37,016 nucleotides of DNA from Ginglymostoma cirratum (Eukaryota), in NCBI GenBank assembly GCA_024137785.1, contig JAHRHZ010000130.1, positions 1,337,520-1,374,535 of the forward strand, given 5' to 3'. The position numbers and the translations under genes were made by a program. Positions 413-37,016 of this stretch are shown piece after piece (positions within the stretch are counted from its first letter, which is position 1; every line of letters starts with the position of its first letter). The notes below the pieces were generated by a model, which saw nothing but the letters and a program-made list of their open reading frames with translations, had not been told where the DNA came from and ran no database searches.

Positions 413-1111
413 AATGATGGAGAGAGAATGAACATAACGAGAGAAAGCGAGTTGGGAATGATACGGTAAGAATTATGTGGGGGGACGGGGGAGAATGAGC
501 GACTGATCTATAAATACATTCAATAAAGTCTGGAAAGGAAGCTCAGAAAAGATCGGAACAGGTTCATTTATAAAAGTAACCACAGTTTTATCTGTGTGAC
601 TCAGTAGCAATTCTGTGGCCAGATTTAGACAGTCTTGGCAGATGTTTTCATGAGACCGTGCCCTCTGAATTTATTTCTGCACAAACGTGAGATTTGCGGT
701 TTGGAGCCAACAACAGAAAAACGAGAAGTCGTGTTACTACGAGCAGGTCCCTGTTTTGTGTTATCACCACAAACATTCTTCCTGCCCATGGGGGTGAATC
801 GACACTTATAACATCACTGCCACCACACAGAATGCTTTAAATATCAAAATTACTTCCTCCTTGGTTTTTAAAATGTTGTTCTATAATTTGTGTTATAATT
901 CATTATCTGAAGGGCAAATAGATTTAGGGTAATCTTTGATAGAAAGAAGGGAGATGAACGCAAGCAATTTACGACACAAAGGGTTATTATGGACGAAATT
1001 ATTTTCAGTGAATCATGTGCTCTATGAAGGGAAGAGAGAAGAGATTGTAAGGGAATGAGTTGGTGCTTTTTTTGGCTCTGACTTCTCCAAGCTTTTCTTT
1101 TTTGATTAATC

Positions 1112-3056
1112 CGACAGTCCCCTTCACTATCTGCTACTCCACCAATCTTAGTGTCATTTGCAAACTTGCTAATCAGACCATCTGTACCTTCCTCCAGATC
1201 ATTTATGTATATCACAAACAACAGTGGTCCCAACACGGATCCCTGTGGAGCACCAGCGGTCACAGTTCTCCATTTTGAGAAACTCCCTTCCACTACAACT
1301 CTCTGTCGCCTGTTGCCCAGCCAGTTCTCTATCCATCTAGCTAATACACCTTGGACCCCATGCGAGTTCACGTTCTCCATCAGCCTACCATGGGGAACTT
1401 TATCAAATGCCTCACTGAAGTCCACGTATATGACATCCACAGCCCTTCCCGCATCTATCAACTTTGTCACTTCATCAAAGAATTCTATCAAGTTGGTAAG
1501 ACATGACCTTCCCTGCACAAAAACATGCTGCCTATCACTAATAAGCCCATTTTCTTCCAAATGTAAATAGATCCTATCCCTCAGTATCTTCTCCAGCAGC
1601 TTCCCCACCACTGATGTCAGTCTCACTGGCCTATAATTACCTGGATTATCCTGGCTACCTTCTTAAATAAGGGGACAACATTAGATATTCTCCAGTCCTC
1701 CGGGACCTCACCTGTGCTCAAGGATGCTGCAAAGATATCTGTTGAGGCCCCACTATTTCCTCTCTCACTTCCCTCAGTAACCTGGGATTGATCCCATCTG
1801 GACCTGGGGACTTGTCCACCCTAATGCCTTTTAGAATACCCAACACTTGTCCTCTCCTTATGCCGAATTGACCTAGAGTAATCAAACATCTATCCCTAAC
1901 CTCAACATCCGTCATGTCCCTCTCCTCAGTGAATACCTTCACAAAGTACTCATGAAGAATCTCACTCATTTTCTGTGACTCCCCACATAACGTCTCTCCT
2001 TTGTCCTTGAGTGGGCCAACATTTTCTCTATTTACCCTCTTGCTCCTTATGCATGAATAAAAGGCTTTGGGATTTTCCTTAACCCTGTTTTCTAAAGATA
2101 TTTCATGACCCCTTTTCGCCATCTTAATTCCTCATTTCAGATTGGTCCTACTTTCCCGATATTCTTCCAAAGCTTTGGCTGTTTTCAGTCGCCTAGACCT
2201 TATGTATGCTTCCTTTTTCCTCTTTGCTAGTCTCACAATTTCACCTGTCATCCATGGTTCCCTAATCTTGCCCATTCTATCCCTCATTTTCACAGTGACA
2301 TGTCTGTCCTGCATTCTAATCAACCTCTCTTTAAAAGCCTCCCACATATCAAATGTGGATTTACACTCAAACAGCTGCTCCGAATCCACATTCTCCAGCT
2401 CCTGCTGAATTTTGCTATAATTGGCCTTCCCCCAATTCAGCACCCTTCTTTTCAGACCACTCTCGTCTTTGTCTATCAGTATTCTAAAACTTAAGGAATT
2501 GTGATGACTATTCCCAAAGTAATCCCCTACTGAAATTTCAACCACCTGGTCGGGCTCATTCCCCAACACCAGGTCCAGTATGGCCCCTTCCCGAGTTGGA
2601 CTATTTACATACTGCTCTAGAAAACCCTCCTGGATGCTCCTTACAAATCCTGCTCCATCTAAACCCCTAACACTAAGTGAATCCCAGTCAATGTTGGGAA
2701 AATTAAAATCTCCCATCACCACCACCCTGTTGCTCCTATATCTTTCCATAATCTGTCTACATATTTGTACCTCTATCTCATGCTTGCTGTTGGAAGGCCT
2801 GATGTACAGCCCCAAAATTGTGACCACACCCTTCTTATTTCTAAGCTTTGCCCATATTGCCTCACTGGTCGAGTCTTCCATAGTGCCCTCCTTCATCACA
2901 GCTGTAATATCCTCTTTGACCAGTAATGCAACGCTTCTACCCCTTTTACCTCCCTCTCTATCCCGCCTGAAGCATCTATACCCTGGGATATTTAGTTGCC
3001 AATCTTGTCCTTCCCTCATCCAAGTCTCAGTAATAGCAATGACGTCATACTCCCAT
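1112..3056 (-). mobile_element. CR1-clade LINE ORF2 fragment (APE endonuclease plus reverse transcriptase), frameshifted
   Basis: Consecutive minus-strand ORFs 2132-3019 (VVMGDFNFPNIDW, PTREGAILDLVL), 1718-2122 (KSPGPDGINPRLL) and 868-1626 (LTSVVGKLLEKI, YVDFSEAFDKVPH, GAPQGSVLGPLLFVIYINDL, KFANDTK with catalytic ADD changed to AND). Confidence 0.93.
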
Positions 3057-3134
3057 TTTCTGTAGACAGAAAGGGAGCAACTAATGTCATGACATGGCCG
3101 GATGTGGGGTGAATAAAAAACATGAAAGGATGAA

Positions 3135-3530
3135 ATCAGGCTCGGAGTTAAGTCCTAAAGGCTCCAAGGGGTCCAAGCAGAAAATGAGATATCCCTCATT
3201 GAGCATGAGCTCAGACTGACTGGAACTCTGCGGTAGGCCTGAGACAGACATGTTGGCCAAGGAACACTGCGTTGCATTGAAACGGTAGGCAACTGGAAGC
3301 TCAGGGTTATTTTTGCAGAGAGAAAATAGGTCTTGCAATGTGGCCACCCAATGTGCATTTCGTCTCCCCAGCATATAGGAGACTGCACTAGTAGGAACAG
3401 AGCAAATTGTAGATCGGATAGAATGAAGCACAGGCAAATCACTGAAAGTTATGTCTGAGGCTTTGGGTGGTGAGGAGGGAGGAGGTAAAGGGGCAGGTAC
3501 TATGTCATTTGAGATTGTATGGAACAGTGT
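3135..3530 (-). mobile_element. Penelope-like element fragment, GIY-YIG endonuclease C-terminal part, decayed
   Basis: Minus strand reads LLYAGETKCTLG in one frame, then NNPELPVAYRFN...YLIFCLDPLEPLGLN in another, matching the PLE YIGET...PVAxHFN...LIFxLxTLxPxGLN pattern. Confidence 0.7.
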
Positions 3531-15372: not shown

Positions 15373-16439
15373 AAACAAACGCGTTTTTGGCAAAGAAACA
15401 GATACATTTTAAACTCATCATTAACTTAATTCTGTCTCTTTCTTGATCAAATTAAAAGAAAAAAGAAGCCTTTAAACAAATGATACGCCAAATCTCTCAA
15501 ACAATCTGCAACAGTACAGGTTTTCTCATAGTTGGTGCTGCAGCAATTCAAAGGGGAAGCGGTGAGATTTGATACACGTAAATAGCATTCGGCTGAACCG
15601 TGCAGTGTCGTCAAACGTATACAGTTCGGTCGAAGTGTCAATATTTTGCATCGAGAATTGTTCAGCGTGAATTGGAATAACAGCCTAAAGTCAGGTAGCT
15701 GAAATTCAACGATCAGTTTATTCAGGGAAGGTTACTTTAAAGTGGAATGAAACTTTTAGCAATGGAAGCCGTCGGACAATGAGTGATGTTATTCCTTAAG
15801 TTTTTCACGTCCCAAAGCAAATATCATTGTTTTTACTCATAAGTAAATCAAATGTTGCAATTCTTCTATATTCTATTCCACAAACAGGGAGCAAAGGGAA
15901 GAATAAAAACGTACAGGTTTATAACACCTTTAAGTGCCTCGGAGTACCCCACTTGCTCTGTCTTGCAACAATGAAAACTTTTTAAAGAAATATACTAACA
16001 AACTGCTGCCTGGGGAACCACTCTGTGAAATTGCCACCGTGCGAGGGATGAAACCGCATTGCAATGAATAACGAGAAAATTTCCTTTCGTAATGTTGGCA
16101 GATGGTAAGTATTGGTCCTGATCATTGACAAAGTTTCCCAGGAACTTGAACATTGTTGTATAAAAGCATGTTCGGTCATCTGAGTGAAACTGGACACTGA
16201 ATACAGTACGTATTTACTGGGAATGTACGTGCTCGCGCCGAATCAACTTTCAACTGATCATTTTTGGAAAAACTATATTTAATTCCAAACAATCAAACAC
16301 CAATTAAGCAACGTTTTTAGAAATATTCGCTGAGCACGGATTACTGATGGTTAACAAATTTATCTCCAGCTGGATACGACAGGAACGCAGAGGAGGAGTC
16401 AAACTGTTGCAGGGGAGACCTGTGACTCCGAATCTCCCA

Positions 16440-16487
16440 CCTCTCTCTCTCTCTGTTTCTAGTATCAGACTCCAACCAGTATAAATA
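16440..16487 (+). promoter_or_regulatory. VH promoter: (CT)n tract and TATA box
   Basis: TATAAATA at 16480-16487, about 92 bp upstream of the leader ATG at 16579; (CT)7 at 16441-16454. Confidence 0.65.
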
Positions 16488-16578
16488 GCGGAATGGTTCC
16501 GCTCCATGTTCACAATCAAGAGGGATTGTTCCGACATTGAGTCGCATTCTCTACTCAGTTGTGCCAAGAGACGAGACA

Positions 16579-16624
16579 ATGCAACTGATCCCGTGCCTCT
16601 GCTTTTTGCTGTCTTGTTTCACCC
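16579..16624 (+). CDS. IGHV: Ig heavy-chain leader exon, MQLIPCLCFLLSCFT(H)
   Basis: ATG at 16579, hydrophobic 15 codons, phase-1 donor c|gtgagt at 16625; 111-bp intron ending ttacag at 16735. Confidence 0.92.
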
Positions 16625-16735
16625 GTGAGTGTTATTTACAGTATAATAACGCAAAGAAGTGTGCTTAGGATATTCTATTATAGTTTTTGTTTTTGCTTGC
16701 TATCTAATGTTATTGTATGTTTCATTTACTTACAG

Positions 16736-17038
16736 ATGTCCGATCCAATATCGTGTTAAACCAGTCACCTCCTGTGTCGGTAAAGCGTGGAGAATCTCAT
16801 AAACTGTCCTGTTCAGTGTCGGGGTTCAGTCTTGACAGCCACCATGTGCATTGGCTTAAGCAATTTCCCGGGAAAAGGTTGGAGTGGCTCCTTGCTTATA
16901 GAAATCCTTCAGATACCAATTATTACGCGCCTGGAGTCGAAGGCCGAATCATTCCTTCAAGGTCCTCCTCTACAGCCTACATTGAGATCAAAAGTTTCAG
17001 ACTCGAAGACACCGCCATTTATTACTGTGCAAAAGATG
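16736..17038 (+). CDS. IGHV: Ig heavy-chain V segment, unrearranged, IgW-like/divergent VH
   Basis: (H)VRS-NIVLNQSPP...LSC(22)SVSGFSL...WLKQFPGKRLEWL...EDTAIYYCAKD; canonical Cys, Trp and YYC; open frame; followed directly by an RSS. Confidence 0.95.
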
Positions 17039-17077
17039 CACAGCAGCTCAACTAAGCCCAGGGTGCATAAAAATACC
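17039..17077 (+). other. V 3' recombination signal sequence, 23-bp spacer
   Basis: Heptamer CACAGCA 17039-17045, spacer 17046-17068 (23 nt), nonamer AAAAATACC 17069-17077 (7/9 to ACAAAAACC). Confidence 0.88.
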
Positions 17078-17406
17078 GAGGAAGATAATTGCATTGAATC
17101 GTAGGTGAGTACTTATTACACGTATTTGCAATTAGATGGAAAGATGCTCGAGTTAAAGCAATACAGTGGCAAAGAATAGTAAAGATGTTAATTAGGTTCG
17201 TATGGAGAGGGAACATGCTTCTGGTTATATTATTCACTGCTGACGACTGGATGTCAACTGAAAAAGATTATTACATAGCTGAGGATAACTTTGGTCGAAA
17301 ACTCTGCCGCCAAATAAACCTCACAGTTAGACTATGGTCAAAATATATTGAGCTGCTGTAATTTATGTGACTATATTTCTAACATCTGCAATTATTCAGT
17401 CAGCAT

Positions 17407-17434
17407 AGTATTTATATGAGGTCTTATTACTGTG
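17407..17434 (-). other. J 5' recombination signal sequence, 12-bp spacer
   Basis: Plus strand AGTATTTAT 17407-17415 (6/9 to GGTTTTTGT), spacer 17416-17427 (12 nt), TACTGTG 17428-17434; nothing nonamer-like at 22/23 spacing (tcagtcagc). Confidence 0.78.
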
Positions 17435-17487
17435 GTACAGCTCTCTTGACAGCTGGGGACAAGGAACCATGGTGACGGTGACTGCAG
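17435..17487 (+). CDS. IGHJ: Ig heavy-chain J (or germline-joined DJ) segment, YSSLDSWGQGTMVTVTA
   Basis: WGQG motif, TMVTVT typical of shark JH, phase-1 donor g|gtaaga at 17488. Confidence 0.95.
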
Positions 17488-18415
17488 GTAAGAAACATGT
17501 TTTATTCGTGTCCTGCTTGATTTGTGACATTATTTCATATTTATGTTTGTTTTCACAATTACTATGCGAACTAAACAGTTCAGTTGTTTGATGCTATGCT
17601 TACAATAATGCTTTTTGCTATGCTACAAGGTGATACTACCATTTCACTGCACCTCTAAATTTTAAGAAAATAGTTACGGAGATATTGAGAGTCTGGTTGA
17701 GTGATTTGCCACTTATTTGCTGTTGAAACATTTTACCTGGCTTACTTCACACACTTGAATTTTTGATAGCAGTTCGGCGTTTCTGACAAGTTTCTAAACT
17801 TGGAGACCTCTGATTGCTGCAAGCTATCTGATAAAGTCATAACATATGTTTAACAACGTTGAAACTAAATTTTAGAATGATATCTAAATGCTTTCAAGGT
17901 CTAAAAATTAATACAGAGATCTTAAATTAATTTTTTTGCTAATTAAATTGCAAGAGATTAATACGAGTTTGATGAGTATTGATTTTAATAAAGGAAATAC
18001 GACTTTAAATAAGAAGAACGTGTTTAACAAATTTCCTGCCCGGATCAGTTTTAAATTATTGCAAATATTCTAATAGAGTATCGTCTCCCAATATTACTAA
18101 AATATGTTATTGTTTAAAAATCAACAAGTTAGGTATAATGTATTTCAATTCAATTGCCCTGTATTGTTCTATATTTGTCTATTTTGAAAATAATAATAAT
18201 GTGTTAAGTGGCAGTCAGTACCGACGCAATGCGCTGCATTTTATTTGAAATATTATATTTGTTTCTGCTGAAAGGATTTGGAGAATTACGCATTTGTGGG
18301 ATGCAATCCCTTGATGTTGCGCATTTTTGCTTATGTGATGAATGGAATATCTACCGATGATACACTGAATAGCTAAAATACGTGACACTCTTTGTTGATT
18401 CTATAATGTTCGTTG

Positions 18416-18459: not shown

Positions 18460-18984
18460 TTTGGGTGATTGAAGCGGATAGAAGTAAGGTTACAGTAAAC
18501 AACTAGTTGTTATTCACACGTATAGATATGCGATGCAAAATTTTAGTGACCCTGCATTTAAACATTCATGCATTAAAATTTATTTTATAACATTCTCATA
18601 CTTACATGAAATGTTGAAGTAAGATGAAAACACACAATCAATGAGTGCTTTTGAGAGTGAAATTAATAAACATACATGATAATAATATCGCGGTATTTGA
18701 AAGGTCGAGGGGAATAAACAACAGGATCAACTACACTTCAGATACTTCTAATCAAATTCTCACATATATTACAATGCAGATTTGGAGCAGACAGAATTTG
18801 AAAGGCCCTCCTGATTCAGAGATAGGAACAAAATGATTGTGCCAGAACAGCCTTTAGTAATTAAAAGCAGCTTTTATTTTCTTATGCAAAACTGAACTTT
18901 TCTTCCATAACGAATTACCTGTACTATATTTTTCTGTCTATTAATCTCCACTAGTAAATCACTGTGTTTCCAATTGAACAATTT

Positions 18985-19400
18985 AGTTACAAAGCCCATT
19001 AAGGCAAAGCAAACCATCAAAGTTGACGGACAGGTAGGGAAAGGGGGATGGGGCTAAATCAAAATAGAGTTGGATGGGTCGGTAAAGTACTCTATCTCTA
19101 TGGTTCCACCATTCTCTAGAGGTTTTGACAGCATTGGTCGACACAGCCTGCTCCACTTCCAGGGACACTTGGGCAGAAACCCAACCACAGATGTTGGACA
19201 GACAGCCGGTAGCTATGACACACTGCTCTGGACTTGTTAATAGCCAACTTGCCCAAAGCCAGGTGCAGACGCACTAGGAGGTCCTGTGACTTGCCCTCAC
19301 CACTCCGAATGCACAAATGTCAGGAGCGTGGGGCTGAAATACAAACAAAAGCCAAACAAAAATCATTTAAGAGGGAGTGCAATGGCCAGCAAGGAAACTT
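18985..19400 (-). mobile_element. Tx1/L1-clade LINE ORF2 C-terminal fragment
   Basis: Minus-strand peptides FSPTLL, GEGKSQDLLVRLHLALGKLAINKSR and SLEVEQAVSTNAVKTSREWW resemble the Tx1 ORF2 end. Confidence 0.65.
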
Positions 19401-21235: not shown

Positions 21236-21361
21236 AGATAAAAGGTACTGCAGATGCTGGAGAATCCGAGATAACAAGCATGGGGCTGGATGAACACAGC
21301 AGGTCAAGCAGCATCATAGGAGCAGGAAAACTTGACGTGTCGGGCCTAAACCCTTCATCAG
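21236..21361 (-). mobile_element. Short Penelope-derived hammerhead element (family B)
   Basis: Identical to 36868-36993 except for one base; ends in a hammerhead core on the minus strand. Confidence 0.8.
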
Positions 21362-25912: not shown

Positions 25913-26212
25913 TGACACCATCACTCCCCACCCTGTATGGCTTGCTCTCCTCCTGTGAACAACCAAGCACACCCAAGTCTGTGACTTATGGCTGTCTGGT
26001 GATGGACTACTCCCCAGAAATCACCAGCCTTGCTTGGAAGAAGGAGCAAGATCCGATTGACAGTGGACTGAAGACTTACCCATCAGTGCTGAATAAGGAG
26101 GGAACGCGTACCCTAAGTAGTCAGTTAACGATCTCTGAATCAGAGGTAGGAAGCGGCAGAATCTACTGTGAGGTCCAACAAAGCGAGAAAGTCTGGCGAA
26201 AAGAAATGCCAG
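25913..26212 (+). CDS. IGHM: IgM Cmu1 exon
   Basis: Acceptor tttatcag|, donor g|gttagt; [17 protein letters not shown]...[10 protein letters not shown]...WKK...[10 protein letters not shown]...IYCEV; light-chain-bonding Cys (SSC) present. Confidence 0.95.
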
Positions 26213-27564: not shown

Positions 27565-27876
27565 ATCCTGTTATTCATCATCCAACTATTATCCTCTCCG
27601 CGAGTCCTAGTGAAGAAGTCATGAGCAGCAGATTTGCAACTGTCGTCTGTTCAATCGTTGATTTCCGTCCAAACTCAATCGCTGTAAATTGGCTGAAGAA
27701 TGGACAAGTCATCCCTTCGGGCTTTGTCACTTCCCCAACCTTTGAAGTGAACGGCAACTTTTCAGCCACCAGTCGTCTCACATTCACTGCTAGGGAGTGG
27801 TTCGACAATGCGGTATTTTCCTGCATGGTTACTCACCAACGGTTCACCCAAATTCAGAACATCACGAGATCTTCAG
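27565..27876 (+). CDS. IGHM: IgM Cmu2 exon
   Basis: Acceptor ttgaag|, donor g|gtaaga; [11 protein letters not shown]...[13 protein letters not shown]...WLKNG...[10 protein letters not shown]...FSCMVTH...NITRSS. Confidence 0.95.
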
Positions 27877-29456: not shown

Positions 29457-29765
29457 AGGATTCCACGTGCAGCGATCCTAAAATCACTCTATTGCCACCA
29501 CCGATCGACCAAGTCTTACTGGACGACACGGTGACCTTAACTTGCATCGTGTCTAATGTTGCTTACGAAGTCAACGTGTCTTGGACCCAAGGAACGAAGC
29601 CTTTGAAATCAGAGATTACTAATCAACAGGGAGAGGATCAACACAGTGTGATCAGCAAAATAGATATCTCTACACAAGCCTGGCAGAGTGGGGATACGTT
29701 CTTCTGCGTGGCAAGCGATCATAATCTGCCGACCCCTGTAAGAGGTTCAATCAGCAAAATAAAAG
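29457..29765 (+). CDS. IGHM: IgM Cmu3 exon
   Basis: Acceptor tttcacag|, donor g|gtgaga; [22 protein letters not shown]...LTCIVSN...WTQ...FFCVAS...LPTP. Confidence 0.95.
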
Positions 29766-30271: not shown

Positions 30272-30663
30272 ATAATCATCCCCGAGTGCCTTCCGTATCT
30301 GTGCTCTTGCCCTTGGCAGAAAAACTCTCATCCCAGGAGTTCGTCTTCCTCACCTGCTTAGTGAGAGGTTTCTCCCCCCGAGAGATCTTTGTAAAGTGGA
30401 CCGTCAATGACAAGCCGGTGAATCCTGGTAACTACAAGAACACCGAGGTGATAGCGGAGAATGACGATACTTCCTACTTCATGTACAGCCTGTTATCCAT
30501 TAGAGCTGCGGAGTGGGCCAGCGGTGCCTCTTACTCTTGTATGGTGGGACATGAGGCGATTCCCCTGAAATTCATCAACAGAACTGTCGATAAATCTAGC
30601 GGTAAACCGAGTTTTGTGAACATTTCCCTTGCACTGATGGACACTGTTAATTTGTGTCAATGA
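30272..30663 (+). CDS. IGHM: IgM Cmu4 exon with secretory tailpiece
   Basis: Acceptor ttccgcag|; [17 protein letters not shown]...[11 protein letters not shown]; internal donor g|gtaaa at 30602 for the membrane form; tail [20 protein letters not shown] with NIS sequon and penultimate Cys. Confidence 0.96.
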
Positions 30664-30691: not shown

Positions 30692-30697
30692 AATAAA
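30692..30697 (+). terminator. Poly(A) signal of the secreted form
   Basis: AATAAA 28 bp after the TGA. Confidence 0.8.
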
Positions 30698-33498: not shown

Positions 33499-33626
33499 AT
33501 TCCACAGACCATGTCTGGATTGAAGACTACCAGGATATAAATAGCAACATCTGGACAACTGCTTCCATGTTCATCTCCCTGTTCTTCCTGAGTATTTTCT
33601 ACAGCGCTGCTGTCACTCTAGTGAAG
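33499..33626 (+). CDS. IGHM: IgM TM1 exon
   Basis: Acceptor cggtag|; DSTDHVWIEDYQDINSNIWTTASMFISLFFLSIFYSAAVTLVK with the conserved antigen-receptor TM motif; phase-0 donor aag|gtaagc. Confidence 0.93.
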
Positions 33627-33746
33627 GTAAGCAGATTCGGTCCACTTACTCTTCAAACCGACAGACACAATTGAAAATACTCTGAATATTTACTTGATTA
33701 AAAGCTATCATAATCCTCGATCATAAACACTATTTTTCTTTTACAG

Positions 33747-33755
33747 GTCAGGTGA
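33747..33755 (+). CDS. IGHM: IgM TM2 exon (VR-stop)
   Basis: Strong acceptor tttttcttttacag| followed by gtc agg tga. Confidence 0.9.
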   Translation, partial: VR

Positions 33756-36867: not shown

Positions 36868-37016
36868 AGATAAAAGGTACTGCAGATGCTGGAGAATCCG
36901 AGATAACAAGCATGGGGCTGGATGAACACAGCAGGTCAAGCAGCATCATAGGAGCAGGAAAACTTGACGTTTCGGGCCTAAACCCTTCATCAGAAATGGG
37001 GGAGGGGAAGAGGGTT
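36868..37016 (-). mobile_element. Penelope-derived element (family B), running off the window end
   Basis: Matches 21236-21361 and continues into a purine-rich tract. Confidence 0.8.
36963..36996 (-). ncRNA. Minimal type I hammerhead ribozyme motif with intact core
   Basis: Minus strand UUU-CUGAUGA-A-GGGU-UUAG-GCCC-GAAA-C-GUC-AAG: full catalytic consensus, 4-bp stem II, palindromic ACGU stem III, short stem I. Confidence 0.65.

Follow-up and report, generated by a model that had tools for sequence, protein, structure and literature searches.

Can a shark heavy-chain gene inherit its diversity (D) segment already joined to its joining (J) segment, while its variable (V) segment is left free to rearrange? 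The question is raised by a stretch of 37,016 nucleotides from Ginglymostoma cirratum, the nurse shark (contig JAHRHZ010000130.1; the whole stretch is called the window). The window holds one intact shark immunoglobulin M (IgM) heavy-chain minilocus, from V to the transmembrane (TM) exons, in which a recombination signal sequence with a 12-bp spacer (12-RSS) stands directly before a 53-bp D+J block. The original prediction read the 12-RSS and the GTACAG(CT) behind it as the remains of D1 fused to JH, and the orthologous locus of a related species (organism A), in which the D is unjoined, bears this out. We conclude that an intact, transcribed IgM gene probably carries an inherited RAG join of D1 to JH.

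Four DNA runs of organism A (X1, X2, X5 and X9, from 4 samples in 4 studies) were aligned to 16400-18100. Identity to the window is ~96% (60 differences and 6 gaps in X1), and no difference is listed over 17388-17526 in the orthologous contigs, a list from which the few differences near the ends of the aligned pieces fall out. In three of the four runs (X1, X2, X5), a single contig follows the window over 16400-17442, continues with 377 extra bases and resumes at 17440-18100; in X9, the locus is split into separate contigs with both loose ends exposed. In organism A, the 5' flank of the window block and its first 8 coding bases lead on to a complete D that has a heptamer on its 3' side: after 17442 come GGGGT, CACAGTG and a spacer like those 3' of D1, and by eye GGGGT plus CACAGTG also ends all 3 canonical D1s of the assembly that contains the window (G000). 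No nonamer is found at 12-bp spacing on the 3' side of this D. On the other side of the extra bases, the loose end before 17440 reads CACTGT, which G17440 completes to a CACTGTG heptamer, so that J starts at 17441.

The canonical clusters of G000 (L007, L008 and L010) are arranged as V23, 12-D1-22, 12-D2-12, 23-J, where the numbers are RSS spacer lengths, with V-D1 intervals of 400-436 bp, D1-D2 intervals of 368-377 bp and D2-J intervals of 371-394 bp. The interval lost from the window measures 370 bp from heptamer to heptamer, which is one intersegment length and fits the canonical D1-D2 range; 30 bases are visible at each of its ends. The locus of organism A is most likely V23, 12-D1-22, 12-J.

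In the window, D gives way to J at 17440-17442, on the 5' margin of the range in which the switch had been expected (17441-17447), and the GCT at these positions maps twice, on both sides of the 377-bp loss. The joint keeps 6-8 of 13 D bases (5-7 nt trimmed) and lacks 0-2 nt of J; it has a 2-nt CT microhomology and no non-templated (N) bases, every base being that of D or J of the orthologue, as in germ-line-joined genes, which have little or no N addition. Both breakpoints lie in coding flanks, within 7 nt and 2 nt of facing heptamers, and the trimming is small, as in a RAG coding joint. At fixed length, 8 of 378 placements of the deletion (2%) would put its two ends in the two coding ends, and 210 of 283,881 (0.07%) with free ends, selection being ignored in both figures. 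Very probably, RAG cut the D1 3' RSS and the 12-RSS on the J side, and the ends were joined at the 2-nt microhomology without TdT. It probably happened in a germ cell, because three other clusters of G000 are unrearranged and because germ-line joints show little N addition; little TdT activity has been described for germ-line joints, and extra bases for somatic ones (PMC2193156).

Two parts of the original prediction need amending at this point. The JH is fused as proposed, but it is barely trimmed (0-2 nt relative to the orthologue J start at 17441), and its unusual start, SLDSW, occurs without a listed difference in the orthologue and is therefore not a product of the join. The features of the locus, with position, strand and identity, are:

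16579-16624, +, leader exon, from ATG to a GT donor, in a frame shared with V
16736-17038, +, VH exon, open, of an IgW-type V family by the V-domain tree; one copy found in G000
17039-17077, +, 3' RSS of V with a 23-bp spacer (heptamer CACAGCA, nonamer AAAAATACC)
17078-17406, +, V-D1 intersegment DNA, 329 bp, colinear with organism A, where it runs into the unjoined D; only weakly similar to paralogous V-D1 intervals
17407-17434, -, 12-RSS, the 5' RSS of D1; in organism A it stands before a complete D
17435-17442, +, D1 remnant GTACAG plus the CT common to J (microhomology), site of the 377-bp loss (organism A contigs of X1, X2 and X5; loose ends of X9)
17441-17487, +, JH coding segment of IgM type (WGQGTMVTVT), preceded in organism A by the CACTGTG heptamer; spliced to the window CH1 in X10
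25913-26212, +, Cmu1 exon, 63% identical to CH1 of the canonical IgM cluster L007 and 30-31% to IgW CH1; AG/GT splice sites
27565-27876, +, Cmu2 exon, open; AG/GT
29457-29765, +, Cmu3 exon, 53% identical to an IgM-type exon in L038; AG/GT
30272-30663, +, Cmu4 exon and secretory tail ending NLCQ, 69% identical to L038; internal donor after 30601, poly(A) signal at 30692
33499-33755, +, TM1 (33499-33626) and TM2 (33747-33755) exons, open, with canonical splice sites

All exons of the window are open, with canonical splice sites. Four Cmu exons, a secretory tail with a penultimate Cys, two TM exons and an IgM-type JH that matches the IgM Js of G000 and is spliced to Cmu1 are those of an IgM minilocus. 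The gene departs from such a locus in its V, which is not of a conventional IgM VH family, and in lacking the canonical V-D1-D2-J order with two free D segments: the window holds no free D, and the orthologue one. The 10-kb flanks of the window contain no V or J motif, and the J intron gave no alignment to other clusters. The V was predicted to have remained free to rearrange, and its 23-RSS is present in the window.

On the + strand, the 12-RSS consists of the nonamer AGTATTTAT, a 12-bp spacer and the heptamer TACTGTG (CACAGTA on the - strand), with 4 mismatches to the consensus, and is directly followed by GTACAGCTCTCTTGACAGCTGGGGACAAGG. The D+J block, in which GTACAG precedes CTCTCTTGAC, translates in frame as YSSLDSWGQGTMVTVTA and ends at a GT donor at 17488. 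Seven RSSs with ≤4 mismatches occur in the window, against a mean of 3.5 in 60 shuffles, so that this one is not beyond chance on its motif alone; we regard it as real because of its position and its match in organism A.

What became of D2 is a separate matter. The original prediction had it deleted in the same event, which does not agree with the loss of a single 370-bp interval and with an orthologue J that already carries a 12-type RSS; these two points make it likely that D2 had gone earlier. The 24 bases before the J heptamer of organism A match the canonical D2 5' RSSs at 12, 14 and 15 of 24 positions (shuffle p 0.009, 0.0007 and 0.0002), the D1 5' RSSs at 12, 10 and 10 and the IgM J RSSs at 5, 7 and 5, the J site of L010 in this comparison being one base out of register and from a probable pseudogene. 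Within the 24 bases, 7 of 9 positions of the nonamer slot agree with the D2 nonamer. The 12-RSS of the window scores 12, 12 and 12 of 24 against the D2 5' RSSs and 12, 8 and 10 against those of D1, so the measure separates 12-type from J-type signals and not D1 from D2. As to the 12/23 pairing of the deleted signals, the J-side signal fits a 12-RSS and the D-side signal is not of the 12 type, its nonamer lying beyond the visible bases. A search of G000 for the J-side motif of organism A gave no match at ≤3 mismatches. No D2 coding remnant is visible in the 30 bases at the J-side end, hence a fully trimmed D2-J join, a hybrid joint and a heptamer-to-heptamer deletion are all possible and indistinguishable here.

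These data suggest the following course of events. D2 would have been lost earlier, in a shared ancestor, leaving a D2-like 12-RSS on J. With a D1-type 22-bp spacer 3' of D and a 12-bp spacer before J, the pair would obey the 12/23 rule, and D1 would have been joined to J with the loss of 377 bp, probably in a germ cell, the product being inherited. The remaining V23 and D12 signals would recombine in B cells, which, if the fused D-J is inherited, would need and make only one join for this gene, V to DJ. Before trimming, 29 nt are predicted to separate TGT from TGG, out of frame if the join is precise, and the third complementarity-determining region (CDR3) would be short, ending in a fixed (Y)SSLDSW; for the canonical groups, single B cells have 24-78 nt here (PMC2435157). 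Tentatively, and with more doubt than confidence, we envisage RAG in the germ line stripping an old, single-copy IgM lineage with an IgW V of its D segments step by step, other sharks perhaps arriving at one junction by the opposite join, so that a semi-invariant IgM class with a short CDR3 would have evolved repeatedly and under selection. In such a scheme, loss of D2 (possibly by a hybrid joint) would give a V23-12D22-12J gene like those of T-cell receptor (TCR) beta and delta, and the D1-J join a light-chain-like heavy chain with one junction.

Expression was assessed from runs X10 and X13 of organism B and from X24, none of which is on record as RNA; the contigs give no level. The contigs of X10 and X13 contain leader and V with 0 differences and with the leader intron spliced out GT..AG (16624>16736), and X24 has about one read pair on the window V, with one read spliced 16624>16736. 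The V contigs of X10 and X13 cease to match at 17030 and 17034, before the RSS, as expected of rearranged transcripts. An X10 contig splices J to the window CH1, and a 1428-base contig of X13 starts at 17441, its length being near the 1394 predicted from J through the secretory poly(A) signal. No contig or read of organism B covers 17058-17427, and this gap was not used as evidence. Most of the V-to-J joints listed belong to other IgM clusters with the same V end and J, and none of those listed is assignable to the window gene. Protein searches matched 1 of 60, 1 of 3 and 0 of 104 candidates, none with an expressed junction, and a PDB search returned generic VH matches only.

Several observations count against an inherited D1-to-J join. 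The V-D1 interval, for which an alignment to paralogous intervals had been proposed, gives a weak signal in one of three clusters and is near background in the other two (z 3.8, 1.9 and -0.3, against 64-70 among the canonical clusters); over the whole interval, only the V-D1 interval of L008 among 10 paralogous intervals is above background (z 3.8, 1/200 shuffles). Both the D 3' nonamer and a possible 23-RSS nonamer of J would lie beyond the 30 visible bases, the nonamer inferred on the J side agrees with the consensus in only 4 of 9 positions, and the canonical D2-J range fits 370 bp as well as the D1-D2 range does. The X10 V contig (16540-17030, record 1) runs into a D2-like core and the J of another cluster, and may be an assembly chimera or an inter-cluster rearrangement. 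The X13 J-C contig begins exactly at the unjoined J start, with 17435-17440 covered by no listed organism B contig, which may point, though weakly, to that animal having an unjoined allele. The joined DNA, moreover, is seen in one assembly, the best share of any DNA run being 0.33; its inheritance is probable and its fixation possible. These last two points, together with the V-DDJ intermediates of shark thymocytes, somatic and prominent for nurse shark Group 5 (PMC2435157), speak for a RAG join that was somatic or private, a lymphocyte V-DDJ intermediate or a rare germ-line allele having entered the assembly. We consider this unlikely: the joint has no N bases, other clusters of the same assembly are unrearranged, polyclonal tissue would not yield a single joint as consensus, and the search of G000 yielded neither a second copy of the V-D interval nor any copy of the J-side RSS motif, although such an absence is no proof.

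An origin without RAG is far less probable still. The GCT on both sides of the 377-bp loss could serve any end-joining pathway, and an ordinary microhomology deletion or a collapse of the assembly at this 3-nt repeat would then suffice; yet both ends fall in the coding flanks of facing RSSs, at the distances from the heptamers given above, and assemblers do not collapse 3-nt repeats. Least credible of all is a JH of the ordinary kind, without any D, in which a 23-RSS has contracted to a 12-RSS. The bases from 17441 do align with canonical JH starts, but in the orthologue the 12-RSS is that of a separate D, which has a 3' heptamer of its own and is 377 bp away from J. Neither observation that was to speak against a D-J fusion, a JH flank with a spacer deletion or an orthologue without D similarity, was made. 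An inherited D1-to-J join remains the reading that we prefer.

The V itself belongs to a different family from the rest of the gene. A tree of 22 V domains places it with two IgW Vs at 100/100 support; its sister is a catshark protein (P0003; support 98/94, 70% identity), and it is 35-45% identical to the IgM-type Vs of G000. At least one copy is present in G000, where V copy counts are lower bounds, and the next-best V is 49% identical. The catshark protein extends by 13 codons that by eye fit a heptamer, 23 bases and a nonamer, followed by TEE as in the window flank; because this extension fits an RSS, the V seems unjoined in catshark too. An IgW-family V thus stands on an IgM J and IgM constant exons, and with the 70%-identical catshark protein the lineage seems old. 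Assignment to an IgW cluster was considered and rejected, as the constant exons are ≤34% identical to the IgW protein P0002 in the main matches and the window J differs from the IgW J of L006.

Partly joined IgM clusters are known from elasmobranchs in the VD-J, VD-DJ and VDJ states (PMC5192425, PMC4279169). They resemble the window in being IgM miniloci with some segments pre-joined, ascribed to RAG in germ cells; as described there, however, they have V joined to D, whereas here V is free, D and J are joined, and an unjoined orthologue fixes both breakpoints. The germ-line joins of the nurse shark NS4 light chain (PMC2193156) offer a similar comparison of joined and split genes, with trimming and little sign of TdT, but concern fully joined light-chain VJ genes compared between paralogues, against a partial heavy-chain join compared between orthologues. 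The somatic V-DDJ configuration of nurse shark thymocytes (Malecek et al, 2008; PMC2435157) shares the free V and the single 12-RSS before a D-J block; there the joints are per-cell, with N and palindromic (P) diversity, whereas the window joint is part of the assembly sequence and lacks N bases. In bamboo shark, IgNAR2, 5 and 6 have a pre-joined D (PMC8692893), likewise inherited partial joins that leave fewer somatic junctions, but these are D-D joins in IgNAR and not a D-J join in IgM.

As a single-copy divergent VH on an IgM cluster, the window gene also resembles nurse shark Group 6 and the horn shark's second VH family, which is monotypic (PMC2191167). Group 6 is given as a pseudogene in PMC2435157, whereas the window gene has open exons and spliced transcripts. 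The passages of that paper that mention the pseudogene Groups 6-8 do so without description, and the window gene may be one of these groups. No Group 6 or horn shark second-family sequence was among the protein search returns. Reportedly, the horn shark family has its orthologue in a divergent VH family of nurse shark. No germ-line V-DJ or V-DDJ IgM, and no expressed V-(D)J gene with an unjoined orthologue, was found in the literature searched, which did not reach key primary work (Lee 2008, Rumfelt 2004, Kokubu 1988, Hsu 2016).

Lee et al (2000; PMC2193156) described the role of RAG, TdT or RSSs in heavy-chain germ-line joins as unclear, the joined and split genes being too different. The ~96% identical orthologous pair gives both breakpoints within two bases and so makes the heavy-chain joining question directly testable; window and organism A form a rare before-and-after pair for what is probably a germ-line join. 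For nurse shark, the gene would be an expressed IgM beyond its five functional groups, and would qualify the view, expressed in a review (PMC5192425), that this species has no canonical germ-line-joined IgM. An inherited gene with an IgW V and an IgM constant region is also a control required wherever such transcripts are taken as class switching.

Among the other clusters of G000, published nurse shark primers match L007 exactly (Group 1, 3/3) and L008 with 0 and 1 mismatch (Group 5); the Cmu membrane primer has no site at ≤3 mismatches in the window or in the cluster loci examined. These matches mark the genome as nurse-shark-like and the constant region of the window gene as divergent. The IgM cluster L010 (G000:C115 near 447422) is split, its J RSS is damaged and its J contains a stop; it is probably a pseudogene. 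L006 (G000:C221 near 59757) and L037 represent an IgW cluster in which V is pre-joined to D and J is preceded by a single 23-type RSS, for which no partner 12-RSS passed the RSS scan. Four genes are fully joined VDJ (L009, L013, L014 and L015); the V of L014 has a stop, and downstream of L015 lie exons resembling CH1, CH3 and CH4, without a CH2 match, as in IgM1gj. Six IgH-like Vs with 23-RSSs on one contig (L012 and L016-L020, G000:C116) have no D or J within 1.5 kb, and we take them to resemble the Ig-like Vs near shark TCR delta.

Elsewhere in the window, the J-C intron holds at 18929-18997 a heptamer (18960-18966) flanked on both sides by nonamer-like 9-mers with a 22-bp spacing; none of 60 shuffles produced such a two-sided site, which was spotted post hoc and has no known role. 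At 871-3154 (- strand) lie fragments with a reverse transcriptase and endonuclease frame, which, from their motifs, we take to be like long interspersed nuclear elements. Two near-identical copies of a short repeat are present at 21238-21360 and 36877-36992.
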